This document shows positions 9,501 to 52,269 of a stretch of 64,000 nucleotides of DNA, piece by piece. Every line of letters begins with the position of its first letter. The first letter of the stretch is position 1. Under the pieces are notes generated by a model. That model was not told the DNA's origin. It did not search any database and saw nothing but the letters and a program-made list of their open reading frames with translations. The position numbers and the translations under genes were made by a program. The DNA comes from Amphiscolops sp. MND2022 (lineage: Eukaryota). The stretch spans positions 7,936,001 to 8,000,000 of the forward strand of contig OZ076414.1 in NCBI GenBank assembly GCA_964187785.1, written 5' to 3'.

Positions 9501-11044
9501 CGTCTTTGGTTCGTATGACTCTCCGACTTGTGCAACTTACGCTTTGAAAAGAACAGCAACAGACAACGCTGACATGTTTCCAAAAGCCACTCGGAGCTCA
9601 CACACGAACTTCTACATGGGGGATTATCTCTAGTGGATGACTATCTAGTGGAAATGGACGACTATCTGTGGAAGACGCTGCCCAAAAGTCCAAAGACTTA
9701 GTGAAAACACTTTCACTAGGCGGTTTCAGTCTCTCGAATTTCGTATCGAACAACCCGAGAGTTGAATCTAATTGACCCGAATTCAGAGAATCATAGCAAT
9801 GATGGACAATGATTGCCGACACTGGGCAAGTCCTACCATGTCCTTGGCCTAAAGTGGAATCAAAACTCAGACACACTTGTTGTCAGTCGAAGTACGACGC
9901 CGGACATTAACCGAACTGTCACTCAAAGTGTTGTGTTAAGTCTTGTCTCTGCATTGTACGACCATAGCGGTCTCGTAGCACCGTATACTGTTTACGCACG
10001 ACTTCTATTGAACGACATTTGGCGACTGAATGGTCAGATATAGGACGAAATCTAGACAGATGACATCATAACATAGTTTACAGACTGGAGCTGCGAACTG
10101 CAGCCGCTTTGCGAAATTGGAATACCTAGAAGCAACTTTCAGCAACAATGCGAGTATTTGGAATAACACATGTTCGAATATGTTTCGTGACAGTTCGCAA
10201 GACTTCTTCAGTGCTGTGACTCTTCTGAGAAGTAAGATCAATTCAGAACATGGCAGCTCAACCGAACTAGGTTTCGATTTTGGAAAAGCACGTGTTGCAC
10301 CAATGAATGCCTTGACAAGGACAAAACTTGATCTTCAAGCTGCTTTTCTTTCCGTGAGACTCAAAGATGACATCCAAGAAGCCTTGACTCCGAAAATAGA
10401 AGAATTTCACATGGAGCGATTGTACTACGGTACTCCAACGGTTAAATTCGCTCGAAAAGCAACCGGTTTTTGTAGCAAACTTTATTGCGGAAGTTTTGAT
10501 GCTTACAACTGTAGACGAGTGGTTTCATGTTGAGTCTGCCGACAACCCTGCGGACGCAGGAACGGGATGCTTGTCTGCTAAGGCACTCCATGAAAGTTGT
10601 TGGTTGAAAGCCCCCAGTTTTTTGATAACTTCTGAAGGGCCTTTCAAGCCATGCGAAAACATCCGAAGTAATTTCAAGCAAGCAAAACTGGATGCGAGTG
10701 ATAAACTAGTAACAGAGTCGTCGACGAGAATATCTGCACACCAAACTGCAATTGCAAAAACTTTGGATTGGCAAAAGTATTGCTCATAGGAGAATTTTCT
10801 GCGCATTGCAGCCTATATGTTGCGCTTTTTGTAGAAGACTAGTACTTGTGCCATCACTCATCCAGCGAAACATGAAATTAATGAACAACATCTTTTTTAC
10901 GTGGTCCAAACCGAGCCCTTTCCATTGGAAAAAATATATGCGCAAGTCGTCGCCACTTAACATTATGTCTAAAATCACACAGTTGTCCCACTTTAATGGA
11001 CCAAATGGTCTTGTAGGAAAACGAACAAACAACTTGATTTTGCC

Positions 11045-12170
11045 ATGTTTGATAAGAAACATCCCATTATTCTGGAAGCCCCTCATCGTTTGATCAGACT
11101 ACTGTTGGAACACTTGCATAATCAAGAGTGTCCCCAGGGTGTTGCTTGCCTCAGAGCATTGGTACAGCAGCCATTTGCTACGAACCGCGCACTGCGAATA
11201 ATTGTTTCGAGGTGTGCAGTTTGCCGCAAACGTAGAGCTGAAAATCTGACTCCAATAATTGTGGACTTACCCCGCGAAAAATTCAAAGAACCTCCGTTTC
11301 CAAACACTGGCGTTGACTTCTTCGGATCGTTATTTGTATTGGTCAAGCTACTAAAAAACGTTGGGGTTTTCTTTATACTTGACTCACGACTCGAGCTGTC
11401 CACTTCGACGTGGCCTCAAGCATGGACACCAGAAGCCACGTGATGGGAATTGAAGCGTTATTTGCCCGTCGTGTCATTCCGTCCGGTATTTGGCCCGACA
11501 ACGTTACAAACTTGGTGGCCACTGAAAATAATTTTTGTTGAATATCAAGAACTGGAATCAGCAATTCTTCGGAGAAACACTTGTGAAGAAAAGTATAAAG
11601 TGGAAGTTTAATCCACCTAATGCTCCGCATCACGGAGGTGTTTGAGAACGTGTTGTGCGAAGATTCAGTCACGTTTGTTACGCTATATTAAAGACCGTTG
11701 ACTGACAGCTGAAATTTTGATGACAACGTTCTGCTTGTTGCAACAATGTCTCAATGCTCGTCCAAATACATCAGCATCTACAGATCCACCAGACCGAGAC
11801 GCGCTAACCTCAAACCATTTCCCGCTAGGAACCGCCAGTTCAACGTTACCTACTCATTTTCACCCCAAAGTAGGCCGTCGAAAGCGGTACGGTCGTGCCC
11901 AAGCGTACTCAGACGCTTTTTGGAATCATTGGCTGGAGGAGTACGTTCCAAATCTGAAACTTCGTTCCAAATGGTGCAAATCGTCCAACAGAGACCTCAA
12001 GACTGGAGATCTTGTTTGGATAGTTGATCCAACTGTTCCTAAAGGAGACTACCCTCATGCCCGAGTTGTGAAATTCGGCACCGATGCCGACGCCAAATCT
12101 ACCGAATTCAATACGTCAACTAGTAATCTAGTTCGTCCCGTTGTTAAGTTAGCTTCCGTTCTCCCCGTTC
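11045..12170 (+). pseudogene. BEL/Pao integrase and C-terminal (DUF5641-like) region
   Basis: HPIIL..HLH..CAVCRKRRA zinc domain, PFPNTGVDFFG core, LNARP..LTSNHF, FWNHWLEEY; broken by frameshifts. Confidence 0.85.
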
Positions 12171-12278
12171 CAGAAAAAACTACATTTTGTTTCGTTTCAC
12201 CGTACAATATTACTTTTCTTAAAACATGTATGAACAATAAATTCAAGTTTTTGTACGATTTTTCCGTCACAATTTTTC

Positions 12279-12300
12279 GGGGCTGGAGGATGTTGTTCAG
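12279..12300 (+). other. Polypurine tract followed by start of 3' LTR (TGTTG at 12291)
   Basis: GGGGCTGGAGGA immediately followed by TGTTGTT, just downstream of the integrase C-terminus. Confidence 0.6.
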
Positions 12301-13099
12301 TATGATAGCAAATGAAAGTGGATAGCAAAATGAAAGTGTTCTTTGGAATTTCTGAATTTTACGTTTCGAGTATTTTCATGCACTTGCTATCTCGCAATCT
12401 GATGTTTCTTATGATCAATATGTGATAACATTTTGTAAAGATTTGTAATGACCTAGTTTCAGACTTTTTTGAAAAGTGGATTATTTTTACCGCTGATTCA
12501 ACAAATTGACTGTTGGATTGTTTGTCTTCACTGATGTCATTTTAAAATGGACTGTAGTCAAATCACAGCTCTCTTCAATGTTGATTTTTTCTTTGAGAGT
12601 GTGTGTGTGAGAGTGGGGGGTGTTGAGGAAAAAGATGCCACACTCTATATGACAAGAACAATGTAACTCGGTGATACAACTAGACGAAGTGTTTTAATCC
12701 GTTTCCAAAAAAGTTGAACTTCGAGTTGAGCGTCCAAACTAAGAGAGCTTTCTTCCTAATAAGGAAAAATATTTCAGTTTTAATTAGTCCTTTTCGAAAT
12801 TTTTCGTCAACAGAGAAAGGCCCTTTTTCTTGATCATCGAATGATTCATGATTAGCGAAACGTTTTCCATTGAAACCAACAATCGTTTTGCCAAAATTAC
12901 GAATTTCACTACATTCGGATATGCTGTCAATCAATTTTCAATCAATTAACACCTAACAGAGCAAGCTCTAGATCAAATGATATTTGTTTTCATGTTTGTA
13001 AACATAGTTTTTCTGTTTTGTAATAAAACTACATCTTTCGATACGATAGATAGAGTGTAGATCCTTTTGACAAAGCATTCATTGGCAAAAAATCTTAAC

Positions 13100-16795: not shown

Positions 16796-19700
16796 AAGCT
16801 TGTTCATTTCCTCCACGAACACGCATTGTATCAAGGTAACACAAAAAACCTGTATCTCTATGGAAGCAACTCGACAGTACAACTGTTAACAGAAAAATGA
16901 AAAATGGATGAAAGTGTAGTTGACATTTTGAATCTACCTTTTATGGAAGGTATGAGTCACTGAACCATAAATGGAAGTATAAACTTACCATAAAAGGAAA
17001 AAGTAATACGCGTCAGCGTACCTCAAAAGTACCTGTCGAACATTTTTATCCTCTGTGAAAGTTAAATGTACAGTTAACAAAAGTTATGGTCAAGTAACGC
17101 CGCATTGTCCGGCAAGACCACTCAAGTGGAACAAATATCCTCAGTAAGACGTTGCGTTCTCTGATAAAACGACTCAAACGTAATAAATTGCCTCATAAAA
17201 ACATGGCATTGATTGTGAAAGCTACTCACGGTGAACAAATTCCCTCAGTAGGAGGCGGCATTGACTGCGAGAATCACAATTCAAAACTCTAAATTATCAC
17301 GTTTCTAAAGATAGATAGCGTGCGTAACTGACAAATGATTACCCTTTTGTCTTTTCTTTTCAAAATTGAAATTACAAAATTGGAATTTTTTAGAAATCCC
17401 AAAAATTGAAAAGTTCAATTGCCCCCCCCCCCTAACGTAGCAAAACTATCAATGTAAATTGGTAGTAGCACGGGTATTAATGATTCTTTAACCGTAACGA
17501 GCGTAATGAAGACAATAAAAGTTAGAGTTTGGCTTTGTATTAGTGCATTTATTTGCCTGGAAGTATTACATTTTTGAATTGGCTACCAAAATTAGTAATT
17601 CTACGTTAAACAATCAAGAAAATGATTGTTCTTAGACAAACAAAAGGTACGTCTAACTATCAAGAGGAATCAGCTTTTCCTATGTAGTTTATCGTTTGTA
17701 GATTATGTATCAAACTCAGTGTACTTGATCAATAAATGACCATGCAGTTGAAAAACAGATCTTGCTCAGAATGCACTGATCTCCTGGACAAACTAAAAAT
17801 TGCGTTTAGGTTGAAATAATTTCTTTCTTTCTTTATAAAACATATCAACAGAGAAAAAACAAATCACCGATTGAATAGTTGATCAGTCCTTGTACCAAAG
17901 TTTTGGCCTTTTTTCAGCGCAGTGATGAGTTGATCGATGTCTGTAGGGATAGCTGGAACACAACCAGTCAGAATTGAGTTCTTGAAACTTTAGGCATCCA
18001 TAGTCATCTAAATTGTCGACATGCTTGCCCACTAACGAGCTCAACATTGTACATTTTTCCAATCTTTTTGCAAAGAATTCGGCTCTGTACTGCTTGAGAC
18101 TAGTCAAAATCTTTGTAACGTCATTGTAGTCCAAAGCACCACTTCTCCAATCAATTTTGTGCAATTTATTTGTGCCCCCAATGTGTTTGGAATGTTGTTT
18201 GGAAACTTGTTGGTGGTTTGAAAGAAAATCCAAAACCTTGTCCGTCAAAAAAACGCCCAAATCTTCAACAATGTTTTATCCAAAAACTCAACATGCAGAG
18301 ACAGAATTGCGATTTTACAGAGACAACTTTTAAAGGAACCAACGATCTGTTTTGTTATCGGTGTCGATTTTAATTTGGTAAATCAATATTTAAGACTCTC
18401 AGCAAGCAACTTGTTTGTACGACTGCGAAATTAAGAATGAATTGAAAGTGGCTGGATCAGTATTTAGCAGTCCTATTACTATATATGGCAATGTTTGTAT
18501 GACGACGTCTTCCCGAAAAGGAGAAGCGTCAATTCACTATATACGCCAATCTTTATATGACGAAGTCTACCCAAAAGGAGAAGCGTCAATATACTATAAA
18601 TGGAAACAGTAGTTACGCGCTAGCTCAAGTGTTCTGTCACGTACTCGTCAAAAATCTTTCTTATTGTTGAGAGGTCCTACTTTCGGGAGACCGAATGTCT
18701 ACAACTGGAGCATAATAACTTCAAAAGACGTTGCACTGTTTGAGAAAACCACTTGCGTAGATCGGCTGAAATTCATCCGATATACATTGTTTTTCCATCT
18801 TTTGTACCTCTTATGTCTTATATTTAAAATTTACCCAAAATAGGCAGACGTCTAAACAGTAATTGATCACTATCAGAGTAGTTGTTACTCGAAGTCACGT
18901 GTTCCTGGCCGTAACATCTGAACATCACGAGGAGAGCACTGAAGTCATTGAAGCACATTAATATTGCTGTTACACACTAGTCCAGTATTTAGGTTGTGAA
19001 AATTTTACTCTAAAATTTGACAAGACGCAAAAATCATTGCTTCGAAACCTGTCTTTTCAAAAATGTGTCGAAAGTGCAAAATTTGTCTTTTTTACGGAGT
19101 AAAATGGGTAAAAACCTGTCTTTTTAAAAATAAAAAGGCCTTCCCAATCTGTCTTTTAGTTTTTTCACCTCGTGTAAAATCTGACGCGTTTCGGAAGGCT
19201 TTTTTTTTAAAAAAAGACAAGTTTTTACCCATTTCATTCCTTGAAAACGACAAATTTTGCGGTACATTTTTAAAGAGACAGGTTTTGAAGCAAAACTTTT
19301 TACGACTTGTCAGAACATGAAGTACTATTTTTCAACGTGTCAGATTTAAAAATAAAATGTTTACGTCATGTCAGATTCGAAGTTAAATATTGTAATAAAC
19401 ACCGTCATATATAAAAAACGAATGATTTCACGTGAAACCAGTTTTCATTGCACAAAATTTCTGCCCAAGACCTCAGGGATTTTTAAAAAATCGGATTTGT
19501 TGTGTTTTTAAAAAGTGCCTCGTGATATTCGGATTTTACGTCCACGAACACGTGACTTCGCGTAACAGCTACACTTGCGTAACAACTACACACGAAACAT
19601 TGGAAAAACAATGTATGTCGAATGAAATTCAACGGATCTACCCGAGTGGTTTTCTCAAATGATGCAACGTCTTTTGAAGTTATTACGTTCCTGTTGTAGA

Positions 19701-21019
19701 CATATGGTATCCCGATAGTAGGATCTCGGAACAATAAGAACGGTTTCCGACGAGTACGCGAGAAAACACTTGAGCTAGCGCGTAGTTACAGTTTCCATTC
19801 ATAATATATTGACGCTTCTCCTTTTTGGGAAGACTTCGTAATTCAAAGATTGCCATATATAGTAGAAAGACCTCTAAATGTTTATCCAGTCACTTTCAAT
19901 TAGTTTTAAGTTTCGCAGTCGTACAAACAAGTTGCTTGTTTAGAGGCTTACATTTTGATTATTAGGTTTAAGCGCACTGCACTTTCTTTTCTCAGGCCGC
20001 CTGCCAGCTTGTAATTTTGAGGCCACTCGCCAAGCCGCGGGACTGCTGTTTTAACTATCAGGCTGTTTGCCAATCTGCGTACTGCGTTCACTAATAAAAA
20101 TTTAGCTCCGTTTTAAATACTATTTAGTTTGAATTAGCTCCATTCTTATAATTGTTGATTTTGTACGGGAAATGTATACTTGTTAACAGATTACTATTAT
20201 CATTACTATTATTTTTAAATATTATAAATATCAGGACCACTTTACCATAGACACCCGAATTACTGAAAACCAAGTTACCAAACCAGGAGGGTAACTTGGC
20301 CGGTAATATGTCCGTCACTATTAAAAATTTTCAAAATGAAAAAAAAAGTAATTTTTGCAGAAATGTGTTTTTTGCCCTCAAAAAGGTTCGATGATGTGCA
20401 AATGAAAGTTTTTTAAAGACGGGTTCAAAAAAATATTAGATCATTTTCATACCAAGTTACCAGGGTTCGATCAGTTATCCTTGTGCCAGATTACACTTCC
20501 CCCGTGCAAAATGTCGTGATTATAAATCTGCGATCGAAACTAAGATTGAAACAAAACCAACAAAAATTCATCCCTTTTGGTGTAAAACAAACGCTCACAT
20601 TAATAAAAATGGGTGTTCAAGTTATTTCAGCTACTATTACTATATTACTATTACTATTATTATTATTATCTTTATTTTTTTTATTTTTATCATTAATATT
20701 ATGAAAGCGCCTTCGTAGACTACATAAGCGCTCCTGCGAGACATTGGCGCTCTCGCCTCTCAAAACACGGGTTACAACACCGCTCCTCCGCACAACTTTC
20801 AAAGGTAAGTGAGTCCATATAGATGTTGTACCGTTTCGGAAAACCATTCCAAAACCGAGTTGAATGCAAGCTGCCTTATGACGTAATTCCGAGAAACTTT
20901 CGTCTCGGAAAACTACCACAGCGAGCGTGGCTGTCGCTTCCACCGGAAGCTTTCTGCACTCGTTCGGCAGCTGTTACGTAACATTTCATCTAGTAATTGG
21001 TAATATAAATAACAGTTAT
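16796..21019. repeat. 4.2-kb tandem duplication, unit 1
   Basis: Starts AAGCTTGTTCATTTCCTCCACG at 16796; the same sequence restarts at 21020 (offset 4224). Near-identical along its whole length by eye. Confidence 0.95.
18381..19960. repeat. ~1.6-kb imperfect palindrome (foldback-like), copy 1
   Basis: ~18381-18935 aligns to the reverse complement of ~19515-19960 (e.g. GCAAGCAACTTGTTTGTACGACTGCGAAA). ~19015-19144 aligns to the reverse complement of ~19193-19320. Both pairs of arms share a centre near 19170. Confidence 0.85.
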
Positions 21020-22603
21020 AAGCTTGTTCATTTCCTCCACGAACACGCATTGTATCAAGGTAACACAAAAAACCTGTATCTCTATGGAAGCAACTCGACA
21101 GTACAACTGTTAACAGAAAAATGAAAAATGGATGAAAGTGTAGTTGACATTTTGAATCTACCTTTTATGGAAGGTATGAGTCACTGAACCATAAATGGAA
21201 GTATAAACTTACCATAAAAGGAAAAAGTAATACGCGTCAGCGTACCTCAAAAGTACCTGTCGAACATTTTTATCCTCTGTGAAAGTTAAATGTACAGTTA
21301 ACAAAAGTTATGGTCAAGTAACGCCGCATTGTCCGGCAAGACCACTCAAGTGGAACAAATATCCTCAGTAAGACGTTGCGTTCTCTGATAAAACGACTCA
21401 AACGTAATAAATTGCCTCATAAAAACATGGCATTGACTGTGAAAGCTACTCACGGTGAACAAATTCCCTCAGTAGGAGGCGGCATTGACTGCGAGAATCA
21501 CAATTCAAAACTCTAAATTATCACGTTTCTAAAGATAGATAGCGTGCGTAACTGACAAATGATTACCCTTTTGTCTTTTCTTTTCAAAATTGAAATTACA
21601 AAATTGGGATTTTTTAGAAATCCCAAAAATTGAAATGTTCAATTGCCCCCCCCCCTAACGTAGCAAAATTATCAATGTAAATTGGTAGTAGCACGGGTAT
21701 TAATGATTCTTTAACCGTAACGAGCGTAATGAAGACAATAAAAGTTAGAGTTTGGCTTTGTATTAGTGCATTTATTTGCCTGGAAGTATTACATTTTTGA
21801 ATTGGCTACCAAAATTAGTAATTCTACGTTAAACAATCAAGAAAATGATTGTTCTTAGACAAACAAAAGGTACGTCTAACTATCAAGAGGAATCAGCTTT
21901 TCCTATGTAGTTTATCGTTTGTAGATTATGTATCAAACTCAGTGTACTTGATCAATAAATGACCATGCAGTTGAAAAACAGATCTTGCTCAGAATGCACT
22001 GATCTCCTGGACAAACTAAAAATTGCGTTTAGGTTGAAATAATTTCTTTCTTTCTTTATAAAACATATCAACAGAGAAAAAACAAATCACCGATTGAATA
22101 GTTGATCAGTCCATGTACCAAAGTTTTGGCCTTTTTTCAGCGCAGTGAAGAGTTGATCGATGTCTGTAGGGATAGCTGGAACACAACCAGTCAGAATTGA
22201 GTTCTTGAAACTTTAGGCATCCATAGTCATCTAAATTTTCGACCTGCTTGCCCACTAACGAGCTCAACATTGTACATTTTTCCAATCTTTTTGCAAAGAA
22301 TTCGGCTCTGTACTGCTTGAGACTAGTCAAAATCTTTGTAACATTATTGTAGTCCAAAGCACCACTTCTCCAATCAATTTTGTGCAATTTATATGTGCCC
22401 CCAATGTGTTTGGAATGTTGTTTGGAAACTTGTTGGTGGTTTGAAAGAAAATCCAAAACCTTGTCCGTCAAAAAAACGCCCAAATCTTCAACAATGTTTT
22501 ATCCAAAAACTCAACATGCAGAGACAGAATTGCAATTTTACAGAGACAACTTTTAAAGGAACCAACGATCTGTTTTGTTATCGGTGTCGATTTTAATTTG
22601 GTA

Positions 22604-24186
22604 AATCAATATTTAGGACTCTCAGCAAGCAACTTGTTTGTACGACTGCGAAATTAAGAATGAATTGAAAGTGGCTGGATCAGTATTTAGCAGTCCTATT
22701 ACTATATATGGCAATGTTTGTATGACGACGTCTTCCCAAAAAGGAGAAGCGTCAATTCACTATATACGCCAATCGTTATATGACGAAGTCTACCCAAAAG
22801 GAGAAGCGTCAATATACTATAATTGGAAACAGTAGTTACGCGCTAGCTCAAGTGTTCTGTCACGTACTCGTCTAAAATCTTTCTTATTGTTGAGAGGTCC
22901 TACTTTCGGGAGACCGAATGTCTACAACTGGAGCATAATAACTTCAGAAGACGTTGCACTGTTTGAGAAAACCACTTGCGTAGATCGGCTGAAATTCATC
23001 CGATATACATTGTTTTTCCATCTTTTGTACCTCTTATGTCGTATATTTAAAATTTACCCAAAATAGGCAGACGTCTAAACAGTAATTGATCACTATCAGA
23101 GTAGTTGTTACTCGAAGTCACGTGTTCCTGGCCGTAACATCTGAACATCACGAGGAGAGCACTGAAGTCATTGAAGCACATAAATATTGCTGTTACACAC
23201 TAGTCCAGTATTTAGGTTGTGAAAATTTTACTCTAAAATTTGACAAGACGCAAAAATCATTGCTTCGAAACCTGTTTTTTTTTAAAAAAATGTGTCAAAA
23301 GTGCAAAATTTGTCTTTTTTACGGAGTAAAATGGGTAAAAACCTGTCTTTTTAAAAGTAAAAAGGCCTTCCCAATCTGTCTTTTAATTTTTTCACCTCGT
23401 GTAAAATCTGACGCGTTTTGGAAGGCTTTTTTTTAAAAAAAGACAAGTTTTTACCCATTTTATTCCTTGAAAACGACAAATTTTGCGGTACATTTTTAAA
23501 GAGACAGGTTTTGAAGCAAAACTTTTTACGACTTGTCAGAACATGAAGTACTATTTTTCAACGTGTCAGATTTAAAAATAAAGTGTTTACGTCATGTCAG
23601 ATTCGAAGTTAAATATTGTAATAAACACCGTCATATATAAAACACGAATGATTTCACGTGAAACCAGTTTTCATTGCACAAAATTTCTGCCCAAGACCTC
23701 AGGGATTTTTAAAAAATCGGATTTGTTGCGTTTTTAAAAATTGCCTCGTGATATTCGGATTTTACGTCCACGAACACGTGACTTCGCGTAACAGCTACAC
23801 TTGCGTAACAACTACACACGAAACATTGGAAAAACAATGTATGTCGAATGAAATTCAACGGATCTACCCGAGTGGTTTTCTCAAATGATGCAACGTCTTT
23901 TGAAGTTATTACGTTCCTGTTGTAGACATATGGTATCCCGATAGTAGGATCTCGGAACGATAAGAACGGTTTCCGACGAGTACGCGAGAAAACACTTGAG
24001 CTAGCGCGTAGTTACAGTTTCCATTCATAATATATTGACCCTTCTCCTTTTTGGGAAGACTTCGTAATTCAAAGATTGCCATATATAGTAGAAAGACCAC
24101 TAAATATTTATCCAGTCACTTTCAATTAGTTTTAAATTTCGCAGTCGTACAAACGAGTTGCTTGTTTAGAGGCTTACATTTTGATT
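22604..24186. repeat. ~1.6-kb imperfect palindrome, copy 2
   Basis: Duplicate of 18381-19960 inside tandem unit 2. Confidence 0.85.
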
Positions 24187-24861
24187 ATTAGGTTTAAGCG
24201 CACTGCACTTTCTTTTCTCAGGCCGCCTGCCAGCTTGTAATTTTGAGGCCACTCGCCAAGCCGCGGGACTGCTGTTCTAACTATCAGGCTGTTTGCCAAT
24301 CTGCGTACTGCGTTCACTAATAATAATTTAGCTCCGTTTTAAATACTATTTAGTTTGAATTAGCTCCATTCTTATAATTGTTGATTTTGTACGGGAAATG
24401 TATACTTGTTAACAGATTACTATTATCATTACTATTATTTTTTAATATTATAAATATCAGGACCACTTTACCATAGACACCCGAATTACTGAAAACCAAG
24501 TTACCAAACCAGGAGGGTAACTTGGCCGGTAATATGTCCATCCCTATTAAAAATTTTCAAAATGAAGAAAAAATGTAATTTTTGCAGAAATGTGTTTTTT
24601 GCCCTCAAAAAGGTTCGATGATGTGCAAATGAAAGTTTTTTAAAGACGGGTTCAAAAAAATATTAGATCATTTTCATGCCAAGTTACCAGCCAGGGTTCG
24701 ATCAGTTATCCTTGTGCCAGATTACACTTCCCCCGTGCAAAATGTCGTGATTAAAAATCTGCGATCGAAACTAAGATTGAAACAAAACCAACAAAAATTC
24801 ATCCCTTTAGGTGTAAAACAAACGCTCACATTAATAAAAATGGGTTCTCAAGTTATTTCAG

Positions 24862-24938
24862 CTACTATTACTATATTACTATTACTATTATTATGATTAT
24901 TATTATCATTATTATTTTTATTTTTATCATTATTATTA
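24862..24938. repeat. Degenerate (ATT/ACT)n microsatellite (paralog at ~20635-20700)
   Basis: CTACTATTACTATATTACTATTACTATTATTATGATTATTATTATCATTATTA... Confidence 0.85.
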
Positions 24939-27900
24939 TGAAAGCGCCTTCGTAGACTACATAAGCGCTCCTGCGAGACATTGGCGCTCTCGCCTCTCAA
25001 AACACGGGTTACAACACCGCTCCTCCGCACAACTTTCAAAGGTAAGTGAGACCATATAGATGTTGTACCGTTTCGGAAAACCATTCCAAAACCGAGTTGA
25101 ATGCAAGCTGCCTTATGACGTAATTCCGAGAAACTTTCGTCTCGGAAAACTACCACAGCGAGCGTGGCTGTCGCTTCCACCGGAAGCTTTCTGCACTCGT
25201 TCGGCAGCTGTTACGTAACATTTCATCTAGTAATTGGTAAAATAAATAACAGTTATGTAAACTAGACACATTTGGTATTCCTAATCTGTTGAATAGTTGC
25301 TTGTTTTCTCAACCTAAATTTTAAAAAATTACATTCGAAATCAAGAATTTCAGAAAATTTGATAATTTACAACAATAGCGTCTCTGTTCAATTTCAATTA
25401 AAATGAAGACGAGAAGTCAAAAAGTTAATGAAGAAGACACAAACATTAAACTTGCTACTCCGACGACTTCCAAGGCTCCCGCAGATGCCATTGATAACAG
25501 CGCTGAGCCCATTTTCAGCCAAAATCTGATTTTAACGCCCCGTACGTCAGGCATTGTCGATGAACTGCTTCAAGATCCGTCTTTAGAAATGGCGTTTAGT
25601 TCAGCACTCACAGCCTCTCGGCTTGTCGCAGGGCAATGCGAAACTGAGTCCCCGCCTCCAAAAGAAGTTGACCCAGGATTGCTTCGTAAACGAAGGATTT
25701 GTAGCCCAAAATCATACGGAAAAGGCCCAAAAGCCGACCTGGCAAAATGTGTAATCTGCCGAAAAGAAGTCAAAAAGATGTATCAACATCTGAACAAGGT
25801 CCATCATTGCGAAGACCGCGTCAAAAGGTTCATTCTGAGCTACCCCCACACCCGAATTGCTGCTGGGCGAGTTTGGGAATGCGTCGATTGCATGCTAAGA
25901 ACTGCCAACAAAACACGACATTTGCAACAAAATCCTGGCCACAACATTGTAAAAGTCAATGACAAAGCCGGATATGATACGTTTCCACCAGAGGTGAGTG
26001 CATTCATCAAAGGAGAGGGTCGGGTCTTTTCAAAAGTCTTTGGAATTATGAAAGATTTCGCCCAGTTCAAAATCGACCTGCGAGATGCACCTGTGCCTGG
26101 GTACGTTGAAGCCTTTTTAACGCACGTCTATTCGAATTGTGGCAACATGCGAAACTGTTCTGACTTGCCCAGGATTTTGACAATGTATCAGGCCCAAAAA
26201 CAGTACTCTTTGGTGTCCATGAAGAAGTTATTATTTGATTTGAAAAACTTTTTGTTTTTCCTCAAAAGCACTGGTGACAAGTCGCAAAAAATTCCTTTCA
26301 ACAGCTGGGAGACTGAGATTGAAACTTACTTGCGTTCCATTCGTAAACCAGCAACACAGGAAGCGTTTGAGAAGCGGGAAGAGCGCTACTATCAAATCCC
26401 TCCCGTTGAGGTGCTTTCAAAGGCAGTAAAAGGTGTTCGCGAGTTATTGCAAGAGGCGCTTTGTCAATTTGTAAGCGACGAAAACAAGGAGAAGGCCCCC
26501 GTACTTTGACAATGAGTGAAATAATTTCATCAATTTTCTTCCTCATTCATGCGCGCACTAATTGTAGAGCTGGTGGTTTGCTGAACATGACAAAGGAGGA
26601 GTTGGATAGCGTCAATACAGACATCCGCCGCACCCACAAACATAAAACAGGCCATATTATGACCAATTTCCGCAAACTGTCGGAGGAAAATTTGGAGTGG
26701 TTGACAACTTTCCACGAAATTTATGAGCAAATGCATGGTAGGGTTGCTATTCTGGCGTTTCCCAACGCTGACGATGGTATATTGACAGCTCAGGCGACTA
26801 CAATCAACACAATTATAGGACGGAATTTTGACTTGAAGCCATATACTTTCGGTCCAAATTCAATTAGAAAGCACTGGGACACAATGCTGGAGAAGGACAA
26901 GTTCGTTACAGAGGACTTACGCGCCGCATATGAGGCTAACAGTGGCCATTCAGAAGCTACAAGGAAGAAATTTTACTCAAAGCCCCCCACCGATGATGAA
27001 ATAAAGCGAATTTTGTCTCTGCAAGAAAAATTTTTGGAAGATCCTGCATATTTAAAGCAGTTGAAAGAGCCACAAGATGTCCAGGGTTGTTCTCATTGGC
27101 CATCAAATGAGCTCTCACCGTCTGAAGACGAGCCTGTAGTTCCTGGGGAAGCTATAGAAGCTCCAGATGCCGCTATTAGTGAATCTCAAACTGAAGGTAA
27201 ATTTGAAATTAAAGGTAATTTGAAACTGAAGGTAAAATTTGTTTTTTAATTTCAACATATCGTTTGCCTGTAGCTAAATGGTTCTATTTGTTATAGTCGA
27301 CAGCGAGAATCCACAGCCTTCCCAGGAAACAGACGAATACCGCCCTTCCAATAAAAAACTGGTTGAAAATCTGCCGCAAAGTTCGCGTTCACTGCGCCGA
27401 CATAAAGAAGAAATGTGGAAGAAGCTCGAAAAAAGCATGCTGAATTTTTTGAAGCCGCATAAAACGCTACAAAAACCCATTGAAAGAATCTGCCGCGTGA
27501 TTGTTGAACAACGAACAATGGTTGGAAAGCATACAGTGCGAGAAATGGCGAAGAAAGAAAACTTGAATAATCGAGATACTGAGACTGTGGTGGATAAAGT
27601 GTACCAAAAGTTCCGCTCTGCCCTTCAATTGGCAACTAAATAGTTTCATTTAGTTTTGATTTTGTACTAGCTTGCTAGTTCGTGGACGTTTAAGTAATAC
27701 AATGTCGTCCCTGTACGTTTTTCAGTCACTGAAGTCTAAATTTTGACAGTAGTAGAAGCCAACAAAGACCCTCTAATAATAGTGCAATTTACATAAACAC
27801 TCCTATTAATAATATTGCAAAGCAAAGACGCTCTTGTTGTTTCAATTCGTTGTCCATTCATATGTACTTTTATTAAGTCTTTGTGAACTCGTATCCATTC

Positions 27901-28274
27901 ACAAAAGTTCACGAGAGTTCAACTTGAGCTCGTCTAAACGCTCTGCCAATAGTAAATGGCACAGCATTGATTTCTTCACGTGGTACCAGTGCTCTCTGGT
28001 AATAATAATTTTTGTACATACAGCCTCTTATTGTCTCAAGTTGAGGTAATTAAACGCCACTGCGTGTGACGTCATACCAATCTGAAATAGAAACAATTGA
28101 GGTTAAGCAAAGTTGTTGCTACGCTTCATAGCAATGCATCGCGACTTGAATGAAGACAATATAATGACTTTCTAGGCTTCTTGGATATCGATTTCTACAT
28201 GCAGCCTCCACATTGTTTCATTCCTAGACAAAGGCAGTTTCATTGTTTTCAAGAATCTTACAAAGGGCCTCCCG
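24939..28274 (+). mobile_element. Crypton-like tyrosine-recombinase DNA element; proposed limits set by the flanking (ATT)n tracts
   Basis: Contains the YR gene at 25403-27643. No TIR, LTR, RT or TSD seen. TTATCATTATTATTA-type microsatellite on both sides (to 24938 and from 28275). The boundaries are inferred. Confidence 0.65.
25403..27643 (+). CDS. C2H2 zinc-finger + tyrosine recombinase (Crypton-like); one frameshift at the C5 run 26496-26500 and a predicted intron 27197-27296; ~713 aa if repaired
   Basis: N-terminal CVICRKEVKKMYQHLNKVH and CVDCMLRTANKTRHLQQNPGH. YR catalytic pattern in the second frame: NC-R-AG, KH-K-TG, PNSI-R-K, SG-H-SEATRKKF-Y. GTAAAT donor at 27197 and TTATAG acceptor at 27296 join the last two ORFs in frame (G|TC = Val). 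Confidence 0.85.
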
Positions 28275-28300
28275 TTATCATTATTATTATTATTATCATT
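28275..28300. repeat. (ATT)n microsatellite
   Basis: TTATCATTATTATTATTATTATCATT. Confidence 0.85.
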
Positions 28301-28534
28301 AAACTTTTTTAAAAATAAGTTAGCTCCGTTATTGTACATAGTATAATATAATAATTGTTTGTAGATCTGCTTACTGTTCCTTCTTCCGTTCTATTCCCAC
28401 TTCCCTTCTCCGTAGACTGCGCTTGGTTCATTGCAGAATTCACAGCTTAGCTGGGGCTGTTACAACTGCGATCACTTTGTTTTCACGCTTGAGTTTCTCA
28501 TGTCATTATCTTATGTGATCACCGTTAGTCAATT

Positions 28535-28770
28535 GAACTGAATACGTTAGTGAACAAACAATATTATTCCCACGGTAGGTTCAACAGGTTGATTGAGTCT
28601 GTAGGTCAAAATTTAACAAATGCAACTCGTAGCGCGTGATTAACAGAGGTGAGTATTATCAGGTGTGTGTAAACATTAATGATCCTGTTGTCTACGTGAC
28701 CCTCGTATAAATACTTGGGAGAGCATGACAAGCACTTTCCCTGGTGTCAAACTTCTAAAAAAGTAATAAT
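28535..28770 (-). repeat. Isolated internal fragment of the family-X Gypsy LTR
   Basis: AACTGAATACGTTAGTGAACAAACAATATTATTCCCACGG.. also at ~29433 and ~43697, same orientation. Confidence 0.8.
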
Positions 28771-28860
28771 GAAACCTGCAAAACTTCGTGTCTCGGAATT
28801 GCCGCCAAATTTAGGATGCAATGAACATTTACAATGAGGGGGGAGAAAAGAATGGGGTGA

Positions 28861-30986
28861 TGTCGTGATATTCATCACTTGAATGGGAAACATCAGAGTT
28901 TCCCCTAAAGTAGTCATGTCGACTACTGTTGACCAAAATGGGCTTTGAGTTAGTTTTCCAAGCATTCCTAGTTCTTTTCTTTTCCGCGGTCCTTCTTAGT
29001 CTACTACACCTGTAGTCCACTTCTTCCCGAAACACAGGATTATGACTAGTAATGATATTTTCATTATTCGGAAGGACTTTCTCACTGATTATTGAGTTTA
29101 CAGTATCCGCTATTTGAGTGTTCAAGTCTCTTTTCAATTCATCTAACTTCTAGGAAACTTCAAAATTCACCAATCACATAGTTTCAATGGTAGATTCACA
29201 GTTTTCTCTGCTGTTTGAATTTAAAAGCTTCGTCATTTATGTTTCCTGATTTGCTATCTAACTCATTTCTTGAATAGGAACCCAACATTACGTCTACATT
29301 TTCTTTATCAGACATTTGGTTCCCTGTCTAGAGAGCGTCTTTCCTTTGCTTTCTGTTTTCTAGTTAAAGGCATTAGGAGAATTGCGCTTTCGGGTAACCG
29401 TTAAAAGCTGCATGTATTTTATAACAAATGAAACTGAATACGTTAGTGAACAAACAATATTATTCCCACGGTAAGTCCAACTGGTTGATTGAGACTGTAG
29501 GTCAAAATTTAACAAATGCAATTCGTAGCGCGTGATTATCAGAGGTGAGTACTATCAGGTGTGTGGAAGCAATAATGATCCTAAGGTCTACGTGACCCTC
29601 GTATAAATAATCGGGAGAGCATGACAAGCGGTTTCCTTGCTTTCAAGCTTCTAAAAATAGTATCAAACCTAAGCGAATCTAAGGGAAATGTCCTTCTGGG
29701 CCATACATCATCATTACATCATTTGGCTATGAATAGGAACAATTTGGGTCGCAAAAGGGTCAGGCTAGTGAGGGGGGAGACGTAAAGGCAGCAGGCTTTT
29801 CAAGTCTGAGGCATCATAACTCATATTTGGAATTTATATTCATTTACGTGAGTATTGGCTAATGTAAATATTACATGTACTTCATGCTTGTCGCTAGTGG
29901 TCCAAATAGCTAATGGCGGAGAAGAAAAAAAGCACACTAACAGCATGCGAGAATGAATGCTAAGCGCTGATTGGATAATACGTTGAGGACTACGCGTCCG
30001 AAATGACTAAGCGAGACGTCAATTCGAATGCGTTTCCTTTCAAATCGACAGTCGCTTACCATTATATTCACTGCTATTTCAGCTAACTTTGATTATTCGA
30101 CATTCTGGGTTACATGATAATAAATTATAACTGATATATGAAATAGATTTGAGCTGGTTTTTACATAAAATCCATTAGGTAAAATATTGGAAAATAATTT
30201 ATAGGGTTGGTCAAACTAAAGCAAACGGACCAAGGGTCCTTATGTTTATACAATGCATAGAAAATCAGTTTATAAATGCTAGGAGCTCATGAGAGATGTT
30301 TGGATGCGGACCGACAGTCCATGGGGCTTACAGTGGCAAAACTTCTGGGGGCAATGTGTAGTTTGATTGTTCGTCAGGTGGTACTTGATAAACTTTTCCA
30401 TCACTGGCGGTCGCCTGTGACACTCCCCGCGGGACGATAACAATTAACCCCGCCCGCATTCTTGATTGAAATGCGTCTCTCCTGCGTTGTCTGGTCTCGT
30501 ATGATTCTCCTCGTATAATAGAGATGGCGAAAATTGTTGAAATATAGTGATTGGAATATTGATGGTTCTAACGAAATGTGGAGATAATAAGAAGCAGTAC
30601 TATTCAAGTGTTCGTCACTGGCAGGTTCCGAAACACTGAAAATCATGATGAAAATATAGTTAAAAGAAATAATAACTCCGGTAAAAACTGAAATAACTTG
30701 CATGTAGCCACGACGTCCTTTAATGTAATGTAGAATAAAGAACACAATAATTGTATAATTGACCGTCTCAAGAGTCGAGTATGATGGTAACAAGTAAGTA
30801 TGTAAGTAACAAGTAAGTAGGTGAACGGGACTTGTAGTTGAATTGACGTAGAACATCGTAAACCAGTTTGATAACAATCACAGTCAACAGCACAGCATTT
30901 GAATTGATTAGCTTCTTTGTCACATTCCTCATTCGCATCACCTGTTATATTTCTCCTGGGGCAGATTAGCGGTCTGGATCGCAACA
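28861..30986 (-). mobile_element. Solo LTR (~2.1 kb) of Gypsy family X
   Basis: Ends TGTCGTGA (28861) and TCGCAACA (30986), i.e. TG..CA with an imperfect terminal IR. Colinear with 43073-45676. Homology stops exactly where the PBS begins in the full element. The flanks GGTGA/GATCA do not give a clean TSD. Confidence 0.8.
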
Positions 30987-32714
30987 GATCAACACTTTGC
31001 AACTTTTGTCACATTAGCAGCATCGCCCGCAGATTTGTATCCTCAGGACTGTGAGCCTGTCCGACTTTCCTCGACCTAAGTTCAAATTTGTCCTGTAGCC
31101 AATTCTAGATCTCCGAATCCCAATCAGCAGCAATGTACGAGAGTTGCAGACGCCAGCATCCGAATCCAGCATTTGAAACTCGACATACAAATTCTGCCTG
31201 CCAATTTGGACAAACATCAGGTTGGTTCTTTAAATTTTTTTGTCATATTTGAGGTTGATCAGGGCTTCCCATTGACTAAATTTTCACTTCCTCTACCGTG
31301 AAATATTCAACCATAGGTATGAACAGATAAAAAACCTTGGTTTCAAAAAGCTTTCAAATGCGATCCGAAATGACTAAGCGAGACGTCAATTCGAATGCGT
31401 TTCCTTTCAAATCGACAGTCGCTTACCATTATATTCACTGCTATTTCAGCTAACTTTGATTATTCGACATTCTGGGTTACATGATAATAAATTATAACTG
31501 ATATATGAAATAGATTTGAGCTGGTTTTTACATAAAATCCATTAGGTAAAATATTGGAAAATAATTTATAGGGTTGGTCAAACTAAAGCAAACGAACCAA
31601 GGGTCCTTATGTTTATACAATGCATAGAAAATCAGTTTATAAATGCTAGGAGCTCATGAGAGATGTTTGGATGCGGACCGACAGTCCATGGGGCTTACAG
31701 TGGCAAAACTTCTGGGGGCAATGTGTAGTTTGATTGTTCGTCAGGTGGTACTTGATAAACTTTTCCATCACTGGCGGTCGCCTGTGACACTCCCCGCGGG
31801 ACGATAACAATTAACCCCGCCCGCATTCTTGATTGAAATGCGTCTCTCCTGCGTTGTCTGGTCTCGTATGATTCTCCTCGTATAATAGGGATGGCGAAAA
31901 TTGTTGAAATATAGTGATTGGAATATTGATGGTTCTAACGAAATGTGGAGATAATAAGAAGCAGTACTATTCAAGTGTTCGTCACTGGCAGGTTCCGAAA
32001 CACTGAAAATCATGATGAAAATATAGTTAAAAGAAATAATAACTCCGGTAAAAACTGAAATAACTTGCATGTAGCCACGACGTCCTTTAATGTAATGTAG
32101 AATAAAGAACACAATAATTGTATAATTGACCGTCTCAAGAGTCGAGTATGATGGTAACAAGTAAGTATAGGTGAACGAGACTTGTAGTTGAATTGACGTA
32201 GAACATCGTAAACCAGTTTGATAACAATCACAGTCAACAGCACAGCATTTGAATTGATTAGCTTCTTTGTCACATTCCTCATTCGCATCACCTGTTATAT
32301 TTCTCCTGGGGCAGATTAGCGGTCTGGATCGCAAAAGATCAACACTTTGCAACTTTTGTCACATTAGAAGCATCGCCCGCAGATTTGTATCCTCAGGACT
32401 GTGAGCCTGTCCGACTTTCCTCGACCTAAGTTCAAATTTGTCCTGTAGCCAATTCTAGATCTCCGAATCCCAATCAGCAGCAATGTACGAGAGTTGCAGA
32501 CGCCAGCATCCGAATCCAGCATTTGAAACTCGACATACAAATTCTGCCTGCCAATTTGGACAAACATCAGGTTGGTTCTTTAAATTTTTTTGTCATATTT
32601 GAGGTTGATCAGGGCTTCCCATTGACTAAATTTTCACTTCTTTTACCGTGAAATATTCAACCATAGGTATGAACAGATAAAAAACCTTGGTTTCAAAAGG
32701 CTTTCAAATGCGAT
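29997..32714. repeat. Tandem duplication of ~1.37 kb (units 29997-31363 and 31364-32714), spanning the LTR end plus flank
   Basis: TCCGAAATGACTAAGCGAG at 29997 and 31364. Unit 2 is ~16 nt shorter in the GTAAGTAACAA repeat. Confidence 0.95.
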
Positions 32715-39105: not shown

Positions 39106-40405
39106 TCACTTTTTTGGTGATACTTCAAAGCGTGATAAATAATCAGCTGCTGTATTGTTTTTGCCAGGCATGTGTGCAATAGTGAAGTTGAATTGGATGA
39201 CGTAATCGCATGCGTTCCAAAGCGTATGTGGGATGTTCTTTGTTTGAAAGAAACGCGTGACCGATTTGTTATCGGTCAGTATTATAACCGGTTTTGGCGT
39301 CCCCCAAAATAAATGTCCAAATTCTTTGAAGGCGGCAAACAATATGTCTAAGAATTCTTTTGCGTAAATGGACATTTTCAACTGTGCGGGACTAGATTTT
39401 TTTGAGCTGTGCGCCACCGGAGGAAAAGCTTTTCTCGTTGAAGTGTATTTCTCTTGTGGATCATCCTCTATCAGGACTGCATTTCCAGCGGCCATGAAGC
39501 TGGCATCAGTCATGAGGGGTATTTGCTTCTTCGGTAGCGGTTGTTTGAGCGCTTATTTGCAACAACGGTCAAGTGCCTTGTTTATCTCGGTAAATTTGCC
39601 CAACAGATCTGGTGTTACCAGGACTTTTTCATCTTTCTTCAATGGTTCAAAGAACGGAGTCAGTTTTTCTGAAAGCCTGTGGATGTAAGTCCGATAATCG
39701 TTGAGAAATCCCAGGTATCGTTGTAATGCTTTCTTGGATTTTGGATATTTTGTATATTCAAGGAAATTTTGGACTCGTTGTCGTTGTGAACGTACTCCAA
39801 CCGGGCCCAACAATGCCCATATCGTCGACATATTGTGCAGATTGATCAGCTTTTTGGACTTTGTCAAGGTATTCGCGAAAAAAGCTTGGTAAAACTGACA
39901 AAGCGCGACTAAGTCCTTGCGCCAATCTGCGATATGCTAAAGTTCTGCTGGCAACATTGAGCGCCAGCATCTCGATCAACCTTCAGTTTGCCATCTGCGG
40001 GCAACGTAATGCTTGCGAGCAATCCAATTTGCAAAAAAGTTTTCTACCTGCCATGTGTTGAGATGAATCCGTCAGCGTACTGACAGTGTGATTGTTGTTG
40101 ATATAATCATCTGATATAAGATTGTTGATCTTCCGAAGGTCAGGTACTAGTCGTAATTTGTCATAAGGTTTCTTTTGGGCAAAAATTGGATTAGCGTATT
40201 TGGAAAATGGGAGAGTAGTTATTATCCCGTAACGTTGCAAAAGTGCCAATTCTACAAAAAGGTCTACCTTGAGATTGATATGCGTTGGTAAACTTTGACT
40301 ATAGGCCAGGGAATCATATTTTGGTGTTAATTTAACCTTAAATTTCTCATTCATGCCTATGTCGAATCGGTGTCTAGCGAAAATATCGTGATATTCGACT
40401 AGCAA
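39106..40405 (-). pseudogene. Gypsy RT-RNase H (broken)
   Basis: ORFs 39983-40405, 39758-39979, 39553-39867 and 39106-39513 carry consecutive RT and RNase H motifs in shifting frames. Confidence 0.9.
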
Positions 40406-42878
40406 AAATCTTCGATGCGTGCAATTTCATTTGGTTGCAGCATAGAGTCAGTCCAATCAAAGTTTGTCAGGATTTGTCGTCTGGACTAAAGGTCATTCTG
40501 AGGATTTAGCTTTTCTAGCTCCTAAAGATTCAGTAGCTCCTTTAGAAGGAGTTTTTGAGTAGGCGTATGTTACTGCGGAACCCCAGGGTCTTCCGGAGTA
40601 GGGAACCAATAGTTCTCCTTGAAATCTTCTGGTTTTGAAGAATTGATCAAGCTGCTTACATAAAAGGCAGCGTTCTTAGGATTGTCCTGCAATAGGTGCC
40701 ATGTGGTCACCGGATCTATAGGTTTAACGTATTTTGTCTGTCCAGGGGTCATGACAGAAAAGTTACCAACGTGCGAACCTCTCTTGAGAGCATAAGGATA
40801 GTCATTGAAGTTATTCAAGTGAATTTCAACTTTACCAGCGGTCAATGTGACCAATGTCGCACAAAAGGCAATGTCCCTATCTTCAGTGAGTTTGCTTGAT
40901 TGAAGAATGCGAGCAACAGTGGTGTAAACGTACATTTGTGAGGTCAACGTGACTAGGTGTCTATCATCACAGGGGATTGTGATATCCTCTTGAGTTCTGA
41001 TAGGCTCCATGACCTTGATGTACTTGTGATCCGCTGTCTTTAACTGCATGGAGAAAAACGGGAAATTTAAGACTCCCTGTCGCATGTCCAATATGGTATT
41101 GTTTCGTTGTAGGAACGAAAGACCAATCAACAGACTCGTTAGTTTCTCCATTACAAAAAACATTTCGTGAAACAATCTTCATGTCGCCGACCTCAAATTT
41201 CAGTTCAACAGTGCTCTTCGGAGTTTGCAGCTGCCTATTTGCTACCATTATTTGGAAATTGGGTGCTGGGCCCACTTTGACAAATGACTGAGGGCTAATA
41301 AACGAATTTTTTGTAGATCGGTTTCAGGGATTGCGTTAGATAGAGCTCCCGTGTCTACAAGGCCATCTAAAGTAAGTTCGCCAAAATCCATTGGAAAAAA
41401 AGAGCATTTGTCGTTTGTATTTGAGTCCAAGATTGGTAGTCAGCGGTACATAATCTGGTTCTCCGTTTCTGGTGACCAGGGTATTCACGAATCGTGCTTC
41501 GACTGCTGTAGTCAAAGACCTTCGGTCTAAAGTTGTGCAATTCATCTTTTTGCTCATCTTGTGCTGGTAAAGCACAAGGCTCAGGTTTTGTTTGCCAAGG
41601 GTCAAATTGTGCTTTTTTTCAAAACGTCGTTTAGAGCCCTATCAGTAACGAGACAATCGGGTTCTATGTCTGCGTCTTGCTTGTTGAAGTCTCCATATAA
41701 GTGATTGTAGTTTTGAATCTCCCAGTAGGGGTCAACACAGTAGTCAAGTCTTATTTATTACGGGATGTAATCGGGTATTGATGGGAGGGGACGAATTTTG
41801 TTTGTGATCGAGTCATGTCCGTCGGACCTGTGGTCCGAAGTAAGAAGTTTAGTAGAAGTGGTTCCCATTTGCTGCCGCCAGTTAGCCGATGAGGAACCTT
41901 TAATTGAAAAGTATATTCAGTTATTCAGTATAAAATACATTAGAAGGGTCAGAAATTATATACTGTCTGACACGTAGTTTGTCATTAAATTGGAGTCGTG
42001 GGAAATCTAAGTTTTTGAGTTCTTCGAGACAGAAGTTGATTGTTTACTACTGATATAGTTTTGGCCTGGGGACGTATCGTGCTAATTTGCGTACTCCAAT
42101 TTGAGGTTTTTGGGCTTGAGGTGGGCTCCTACGCCTTTCCAACACCGTCTCCCCGGGTGGTTTGTTTTGTCGCAAAAGGACATTTTGGATATTCCTTTTT
42201 GGTATCCTGCCTTTCGTTGCGTTTTGTTCCTCCTTTCTTTTGAGTTTTCAGCAGTCATCCTTGACGTGTCCGGGTTTTTTGCAGTAATTGCAGGTAATAT
42301 TCAGGTCAATGCCGGAAGAGCGGAGGCCTGTTCCCGGTCGTGTTGCTGTCGGGGCAGTGGACATTGTGGGGACTGCAAGTCCATTAAACTCTAGTTCCCG
42401 TTCTAGGTGGGTAACGATTTCTTCATATGAGGCATTCTCCAGTCTCGCCATATTGACTGATCTCTTGAGTTTTGGGGGCAATTTGGCGTATAATAGGCTG
42501 TCTATCATCGCCTGGACGCTTTCGCGGAACGCTTGTTCCGCACCCTGATTTAATTCTTCAAGAAAATCCGGCAATTTCATTGAGTTTGGATCAAACACCA
42601 AGTTTTGCCATTACATCTTCCGCCAGTTTGACCGCCAGTACATCTTCCAGAGTTTGCCTACTTACAGTGCTATTGTTGCGAAAAGTTTGTTGGGCATTTT
42701 TCTTTATAAGGAAATGAATGATTTATTTTCATCATTTCCGTCATATATGGCTGCATTTTTATCATGGTATGAAAAATGTCTTCAAAGACCTTTTCCAATT
42801 TGCCATCAAACGTCAGTGTAGGGGTGCTGACCGGGCGTACCATCAGTGTTTGTGCTGATGATTTGCTGTTCATTCCGA

Positions 42879-43502
42879 CTAACAGGTCCGCAAGGCGTCT
42901 GATGGGGTCTGAGTTGTCGTGAGTGATTGACACTGGTCTCTGGGAACGAAGGGATATTCTCTGAAGATTGACCTTGTGGGAGATTTTGATTCTGTGTGGG
43001 CAAGGGAGTGCATGGGACGTCCAGTAAGAAATTCAGGAACCGTACGAGGGGTCAGGTTGGCTCCTGTCACCATGTCGTGATCTTCATCACTTGCTTGGGA
43101 AACATCAGAGTTTCCCCTAAAGTAGTCATGTCGACTACTGTTGACTAAATTGTGCTTTGAGTTCTTTTTGCAAGCTTTCCTAGCTCTTTTCTCTTCGGCG
43201 GTCCTGCTTAGTCTACTGGACCTGTGGTCCGCTTCTTCCCGAAACGAAGGATTTTGACTGGTCATGGTAATTTGAATATTCGGAAGGACTTTCTCAATGA
43301 ATATTGATTTTATAGTATCTACTATTTGAGTGTTCAAGCCTCTTTTCAACTCATCTATTTTCTTGGAAACTTGAGAACTCACCAACCCCATAGTTTCAAT
43401 GGTAGACTCACTATTTTCTCTACCGTTTGAATTTAAAGCCGATCTGAAATCTTTGAACAACCTTCTGTCTAGTTCTGTCGGATCCAAAGTCCACTTCGTC
43501 AT
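42879..43502 (-). CDS. gag N-terminal ORF that starts inside the 5' LTR and reads through the LTR/PBS junction
   Basis: ATG at 43502; 143 codons lie in the LTR; ..GAT CAC GAC A|TG GTG ACA GGA (DHD-M-VTG) spans the LTR end at 43073. Confidence 0.7.
   Translation of the reverse strand: MTKWTLDPTELDRRLFKDFRSALNSNGRENSESTIETMGLVSSQVSKKIDELKRGLNTQIVDTIKSIFIEKVLPNIQITMTSQNPSFREEADHRSSRLSRTAEEKRARKACKKNSKHNLVNSSRHDYFRGNSDVSQASDEDHDMVTGANLTPRTVPEFLTGRPMHSLAHTESKSPTRSIFREYPFVPRDQCQSLTTTQTPSDALRTC
43059..43072 (-). promoter_or_regulatory. Primer-binding site, tRNA-Leu-like
   Basis: TGGTGACAGGAGCC directly after the LTR-terminal ..CACGACA. One mismatch from TGGTGTCAGGAG, the complement of a typical metazoan tRNA-Leu(CAG) 3' end. 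Confidence 0.6.
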
Positions 43503-52098: not shown

Positions 52099-52269
52099 CC
52101 TTATTGCAAGCTGACAAAAACTGAAGAAAAACGCAAACTTCAGAGTATTAAAGAAGTATTTGCAGTCAAACTTTAGGAAGTTTATGTTTTAAGTGTAGTG
52201 AGGTTTAGGTTTCAAACTATTTGTCCATTATCATTTTTGAAACGTTTTAGAAATTTGACTGCAAGTTCA

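Follow-up and report, generated by a model that had tools for sequence, protein, structure and literature searches.

The stretch of DNA that we analyzed, hereafter the window, comprises 64,000 nucleotides of contig OZ076414.1 (positions 7,936,001 to 8,000,000) from Amphiscolops sp. MND2022, and it holds one copy of a repeated element, family F0, whose features are collected in Table 1. Its gene appears among the open reading frames of the window as three frames (25403-26509, 26410-27249, and 27278-27643), which an earlier, sequence-only reading had joined into a nearly intact Crypton-like gene. The start codon (ATG, 25403) and the stop (27643) given in that reading were found, as were its two C2H2-like motifs (at 25748 and 25880) and its tyrosine-recombinase motifs, which we located at 26560 (NCRAG), 26641 (HKT), 26857 (NSIR), 26944 (GHS), and 26965 (KKFY).

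Table 1. Features of the F0 copy and its surroundings (positions in the window)
Feature	Position	Strand	Remarks
Whole element, family F0	24938..28279	+	3.34 kb (about 3.37 kb in most siblings); boundaries common to 20 siblings; precise ends merge into the repeat
Left flank, degenerate (ATT)n	24863..24937	+	likely target repeat
Right flank, short (ATT)n	28280..28301	+	
Left terminal 12-bp motif	24941..24952	+	in AT-N register; likely recombinase binding site (inferred)
Right terminal 12-bp motif	28261..28272	-	imperfect inverted partner of the left motif
Exon 1	25403..27196	+	disordered N-terminus, two zinc-finger motifs, core-binding and catalytic recombinase domains, acidic linker; broken here
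Two C2H2-like motifs	25748..25942	+	also in sister families and the nimavirus recombinase
Catalytic positions	26566..26976	+	R 26566, K 26644, N 26857, R 26866, H 26947, Y 26974
Predicted phase-1 GT-AG intron	27197..27296	+	from homology and frame; present in F0, absent from the other 3.3-kb families aligned
Exon 2	27297..27643	+	end of the linker and conserved four-helix C-terminal domain, possibly DNA-binding
Dispersed host repeat, left part	24186..24434	+	right part resumes at 28291-28465
Orphan copy of the first ~320 bp of the element	20701..21019	+	from a 4.2-kb tandem duplication, 16796-21019 / 21020-25256

Other repeats share the window. Nested long inverted repeats at 18381-19960 and 22604-24186, 84-87% identical and arranged around a 300-bp imperfect palindrome, are foldback- or MITE-like. 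Decayed remnants of a Pao/BEL retrotransposon (Peptidase_A17, DUF5641) lie at 10072-12325 on the forward strand, and an 866-aa endonuclease-RT frame of a LINE, unrelated to the element, occupies 49588-52188 on the reverse strand (RVT_1, E 3.8e-41). By inspection, 28531-32714 and 39106-45674 hold Gypsy-like remnants, with LTR-like repeats at 28531-28765, 29432-29662, and 43692-43927 and a 1.37-kb tandem duplication at 29997-32714, inside the first of these regions. A tandem repeat with a 170-174 bp unit (about 4.5 copies) is found at 53556-54356.

The sequence-only reading had recognized a single lesion in the gene, one base missing at a run of five Cs, and a repaired protein of 713 aa. When the window copy was aligned with 19 siblings, the 20 that had been fetched minus the internally deleted L044, that run showed no indel, and three other deletions emerged, all of bases that are present in 19 of 19 siblings. 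The loss of 22 nt at 26469/70 shifts the frame ahead of the catalytic residues, and losses of 8 nt at 25593/94 and 1 nt at 25634/35, a net 9, put about 14 codons in the wrong frame before it is regained. The unbroken spliced product is 723 aa. Identity between the window copy and the youngest siblings is about 98%. Among themselves, the 12 youngest that were aligned are 99.0-99.6% identical, and they lie in unrelated flanks. Of the 20 fetched siblings, 9 have an unbroken gene, in which a start codon is present and both exons are free of indels and stops. The family is thus young, and the copy in the window is, as judged from these alignments, a non-functional fossil. The earlier description of the copy as possibly mobile fits the young siblings and fails for the copy in the window, with its three exonic deletions.

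The proposed 100-nt GT-AG intron gained support: the interval joins the last two frames, and the alternative AG at 27273 leads to a stop. Furthermore, exon 2 matches a profile built from the C-termini of 12 intronless relatives (E 4e-20), being the sole match among the 1251 frames of the window, and the sister families described below encode the same C-terminal domain in one frame. This homology of exon 2 to intronless C-termini supports the intron, which we regard as predicted. Among 29 aligned rows, two of which duplicate copies present in others, 28 retain the GT and all retain the AG. The interval measures 95 nt in most siblings (a net 5 nt longer in the window copy), and non-triplet indels are tolerated within it in several lineages. 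As for the domain that exon 2 encodes, its model is of good quality (pLDDT 84), the best structural match reaches only Z 6.3, none being clear, and protein-language features give a weak helix-turn-helix lead; a DNA-binding role is possible, and the guess of a Myb domain found no support. A donor-like GTAAGT at 25042-25047, in the 5′ region of the element, might mark a further intron in the untranslated region.

The sequence-only reading had looked to recombinase HMMs for confirmation. Pfam gave no recombinase family above cut-off for the three window frames or for intact copies, and relatives matched only below threshold; sequence and profile searches of solved structures likewise returned nothing meaningful. 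The answer to this came from the predicted fold. A structure model made from 15 family members (pLDDT 80.9) found XerA first in Foldseek (E 5.9e-4), followed by XerH, XerD, Cre, and the Tn1549 integrase, in a list composed almost entirely of tyrosine recombinases. In a wide structural search, the first 12 rows were recombinases or integrases, with XerH at Z 13.6 and an rmsd of 5.0 over 275 residues. The encoded protein is thus predicted, from this model, to fold like the Cre/Xer tyrosine recombinases. The R, H-K-T, R, H, and Y residues are invariant in 15 aligned family members; the N at the usual His of H-x-x-R, which the sequence-only reading had pointed out, is indeed present in the window copy and is unconserved elsewhere, being N or D in sister families and T or A in some relatives. 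Between sub-lineages (L033 and L039 versus L035), the dN/dS of exon 1 is 0.20 and 0.32, low values that show purifying selection. In the 12 young copies, private changes are nearer to neutral, with a ratio of 0.69 in exon 1 and, in exon 2, 8 nonsynonymous changes against 1 synonymous; ratios of 0.5-0.9 were obtained for broken copies of greater divergence.

A protein search of the same genome (1.07 Gb) produced 690 candidates, of which 139 were scored, all with E ≤1e-3; about 28 were close matches, and more than 100 had 32-40% identity. Word-index protein searches reached almost only the F0 family. Exact patterns for the F0 ends occur at least 28 times for the left and at least 21 times for the right, and the reversed patterns, used as a control, do not occur. 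In all 20 fetched siblings the ends are the same, both running into (ATT)n or degenerate (ATT)n on the same strand, so a direct repeat of 4-6 bp would be indistinguishable from the target. An older F0 copy (L099:5321-5613) has an inverted 3′ end and lacks the normal right junction.

In the window, the element interrupts a dispersed host repeat; of the 11 paralogues examined, 9 have the two parts of that repeat joined. The gap also contains 430 bp of a different repeat, so the host repeat does not offer a clean empty site. Such a site was sought twice and none was found, the paralogues of the immediate left flank being devoid of the tract; those of the split host repeat already hold an ATT-rich stretch. 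An apparent LTR beside one copy (L036) turned out to be another ATT-targeting element and hence no evidence of an empty site. The 4.2-kb tandem duplication that accounts for the orphan fragment is 98.3% identical between its halves, it ends on the right at a breakpoint some 320 bp into the element, and its junction shows no obvious microhomology; the duplication probably copied the start of the element after insertion.

F0 is one of several such families. From 40 further regions chosen among the weaker protein matches, and then 20 and 6 more, long open reading frames fell into 11 clusters at 85% identity, and one additional family (F11) was recognized later, giving at least 11 sister families with the same layout. 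Their proteins are 26-31% identical to that of F0, and the elements for which both ends were found measure 3.24-3.39 kb. Ends could be defined in nine families, each of which uses one repeat in one orientation: on the gene strand, ATT for F0, F3, and F6; AAT for F2, F4, and F7; and ATC for F1, F5, and F11. Among 234 end observations in these families, from loci that were picked by protein match and not by flank and that may overlap and so count one end twice, at least 13 of the 15 flank positions agreed with a trinucleotide repeat in 221, as against 9 of 5000 random 15-mers from the window. Elements also accumulate in shared tracts. For instance, seven elements of two families lie in the same orientation in one ATC tract, over about 22 kb (L097, L098, L052; G000:C2:18775400-18797300), and F0 elements are neighbors of F2 and F6 in ATT tracts. 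In a tree of 40 recombinases, with no row dropped, at least six ATT or AAT families form one well-supported clade, the ATC families fall into two groups, and F0 is a long, separate, weakly placed branch. These groupings suggest that the target was probably switched more than once among the families, in an order that the tree does not give.

The lineage also takes other forms. In the same genome, relatives of about 7-10 kb that combine a SET domain, zinc fingers, and the recombinase lie in (AGT)n or (ATT)n tracts (L157 at G000:C10:45061001-45071000, L159, L100, and L102-L105); at least one has an apparently multi-exon gene and cargo frames, and one family has many 100%-identical ends. Internally deleted F11 copies of 2.4 kb (L098, L107, L111, L078) are 95-99% identical to full-length F11 in their 5′ part and 84-85% in their 3′ part and, going by these identities, are an amplified, chimeric, non-autonomous subfamily. 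An independent, 3.5-kb metagenome record (L163:1-3535) contains a complete F1-like element with one frameshift and 70% protein identity to F1, flanked at both ends by (ATC)n in the same orientation as in F1.

The ends themselves are built alike. A 12-bp motif is present in inverted orientation at both ends in 9 of 9 families, 6-9 bases inside and in AT-N register with the flank, and the left ends of F0, F1, F3, and F11 begin in the reverse-complement phase of the repeat, which creates palindromes of 6-14 bp. When repeated end motifs were searched for automatically, nothing but AT-rich noise emerged. With a seeded search, each family showed 1-5 additional occurrences of the end motif close to its ends (only one in F0), 0.3-0.8 being expected. 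Systems of the lambda and Tn916 type have arm-type sites, which these extra copies recall, and we note this as a lead. At the left junction, F0 copies differ by one repeat unit (12 of the A type and 9 of the T type, n = 21) independently of internal SNP groups, and variants also occur in F1 (23:9:2) and F3 (57:2). This variation fits either a crossover within repeat-like DNA, with heteroduplex resolution, or slippage.

Slippage raises the question of whether the repeat was the target at all. The elements could have inserted at a short AT-rich word, with the (ATT)n flanks growing later by slippage from the repeat-like ends or being added at insertion, and the one-unit variation of the left junction, together with the short or degenerate state of some flanks, would suit such a history. 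Nevertheless, long tracts are found on both sides of copies that are 99.5% identical, some flanks are old degenerate repeats, unrelated families share a tract in fixed orientations, and, as described above, paralogues of the host repeat already hold an ATT-rich stretch. We therefore regard growth of the flanks after or during insertion as unlikely, and insertion into existing repeat tracts as the better account.

Tyrosine recombinases need sites with two-fold pseudo-symmetry, and their chemistry is established; from this chemistry we infer how an element of this kind could move. The recombinase would bind the inverted 12-bp end motifs and the adjoining repeat, the two ends would recombine to free the element as a circle, and the circle junction would then recombine into an (ATT)n tract, leaving the repeat on both sides. 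Given that such an insertion would regenerate the target, further copies, and also other families, could stack in one tract. The pseudo-symmetry might be supplied by the repeats: two of every three positions in (ATN)n and (TAN)n agree with the reverse complement of the same repeat. This rule fits 3 of 3 target classes, but 6 of the 10 trinucleotide classes have the property, so the chance of such a fit is 1 in 6. Copy number would rise through excision and repair around DNA replication.

Alternatively, the element could move replicatively, by copy-and-paste: one strand would be nicked, and repair synthesis would copy the element with no free double-stranded circle. The difficulty of this route is that the predicted core-binding and catalytic fold and the paired inverted end motifs fit recombination between two sites, and that arrays of mixed families are expected from independent insertions into a regenerated target; we consider it quite improbable. 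Returning to site-specific recombination through an excised circle, we hold with good confidence that this is how the family likely moves and that the copy in the window is a frameshifted member of a young 3.4-kb family, present in many copies and sitting in (ATT)n, whose one protein is a predicted tyrosine recombinase, a reading that builds on the observed shared ends, copy number, repeat flanks, fixed orientation in each family, catalytic motifs, and lesions.

The assignment to the Crypton-type DNA transposons, which have a tyrosine recombinase and no reverse transcriptase, is supported by the fold, the catalytic residues, the many copies, and the single gene. No RT or DDE transposase frame lies between the ends of an intact copy, as in Cryptons in the broad sense. 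The CryptonV-like nature that the sequence-only reading had guessed gains independent support from the strict targeting of microsatellites. According to the accessible text of PMC8869645, which cites Kapitonov and Jurka (2012, Repbase Reports 12:2034), CryptonV elements are DNA transposons inserted specifically in microsatellites; in the parts of PMC5753468 and PMC4455052 available to us, CryptonV appears as a name in a table, so that, in the portions of the literature found, microsatellite-targeting Cryptons amount to a name and one sentence. Set against that description, the likeness consists of a tyrosine recombinase as the only protein, microsatellite-specific insertion, and an animal host. 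The excerpts examined contain no description for CryptonV of zinc fingers, a C-terminal domain, inverted end motifs, a family-specific intron, target switching, or mixed arrays, the features that we report here. Judged by title or the start of the abstract, no paper that we found describes these families. It is thus probable, with CryptonV compared by description only, that the element family is a relative of CryptonV rather than a new kind of element.

Other known systems were compared as well. CryptonA/I, CryptonF, and CryptonS are eukaryotic tyrosine-recombinase DNA transposons without RT, for which a circle route has been proposed (PMC3212892 and PMC13465315, in the sections available), and an active CryptonF of Chlamydomonas inserts and excises by site-specific recombination at a short target (PMC9977147, in part); the element described here differs from all of them in its imperfect inverted end motifs and repeat target. 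Animal CryptonA/I elements have, in the accessible part of PMC3212892, no C-terminal domain and no terminal repeats, and our conserved C-terminal domain, inverted end motifs, and lack of a DUF3504 match in Pfam rule them out. CryptonF was rejected because GCR1_C is missing, Pfam giving no match on exon 2 or on the full-length intronless F2 protein. Starships were also set aside, as Pfam shows no DUF3435 match and F0 has no cargo; a feature-level lead at 0.90 was the only pointer to them. The integrases of Tn916/Tn1549 and of the lambda type, XerH, and Cre resemble the modeled protein in the predicted core-binding and catalytic fold, although they are only 9-15% identical to the F0 protein. Moreover, F0 has zinc fingers and a C-terminal helical domain, in contrast to the N-terminal arm-binding domain of the Tn916/Tn1549 and lambda-type integrases, and it carries no excisionase or other gene.

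A further relative came from viruses. A profile search gave 234 proteins at E ≤1e-3, and among the ten that were looked up, the one with an informative name is a nimavirus tyrosine recombinase (BDT62627.1), which matches the profile at E 1.8e-8 and, in HHalign, with a probability of 97.2 over 381 columns spanning the zinc fingers and the SAM-like and catalytic domains. The two share, besides these domains, the HKT motif and repeat-specific insertion, as the available part of PMC10871703 describes it for the nimavirus enzyme. They differ in that the latter is carried by giant viral genomes and has (TAACC)n, associated with telomere repeats, as its target (same excerpt), and identity is only about 19%. 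In our tree, the nimavirus protein sits on a very long branch (3.1) with unsure placement. The nimavirus enzymes have been called unrelated to known Cryptons, in a comparison whose Crypton inputs were, in the text accessible to us, only CryA, CryF, CryI, and CryS (PMC10871703). A shared origin of these elements and the nimavirus recombinases is plausible.

This homology, together with the larger SET-bearing relatives with cargo in the same genome, could be taken to mean that the F0 gene is a recombinase fragment or a non-autonomous remnant of something larger, such as a DIRS/Ngaro retroelement, a Polinton-like element, or an endogenous virus. However, the element is bounded at about 3.37 kb in all 20 fetched copies (one with a short internal deletion), and the intact copy that was listed has the recombinase exons and no other frame of 100 aa between its ends. 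There is likewise no capsid, and neither the RT nor the pPolB whose linkage would, in the sequence-only reading, have spoken for DIRS or Polinton elements; DIRS, Ngaro, and VIPER fall away with the missing RT, and Polinton-like elements and endogenous viruses with the single-gene layout and the lack of any relative in a scan of viral contigs. As the compact layout also recurs in families that are only 25-31% identical, the fragment reading is already largely refuted, and we give it very little credence. Least probable of all is domestication as a host gene, which the sequence-only reading had allowed for and for which the intron and the well-known domestication of Cryptons (PMC3212892, as far as available) might speak, since the gene has three exonic deletions here and more than 20 dispersed, near-identical copies keep their transposon ends.

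With about a dozen sharply bounded families, intact copies of recent origin, and a naturally occurring set of target switches among ATT, AAT, ATC, and AGT, this genome makes two problems accessible to testing: the way in which a tyrosine recombinase can employ a non-palindromic simple repeat as its site, and the identity of the domain that determines the target. The nimavirus homology suggests, in turn, a possible source for the integrase of those viruses. A more far-reaching idea, which we advance tentatively and with more doubt than conviction, is that one lineage of zinc-finger tyrosine recombinases reads simple repeats through the hidden two-fold symmetry of AT-N/TA-N, has switched between ATT, ATC, and AGT within one genome, spans both the 3.3-kb and the SET-bearing 7-10-kb forms, and supplied the nimavirus integrase. 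If this were true, the young intact copies would represent a ready single-protein, repeat-specific integrase for animal cells.
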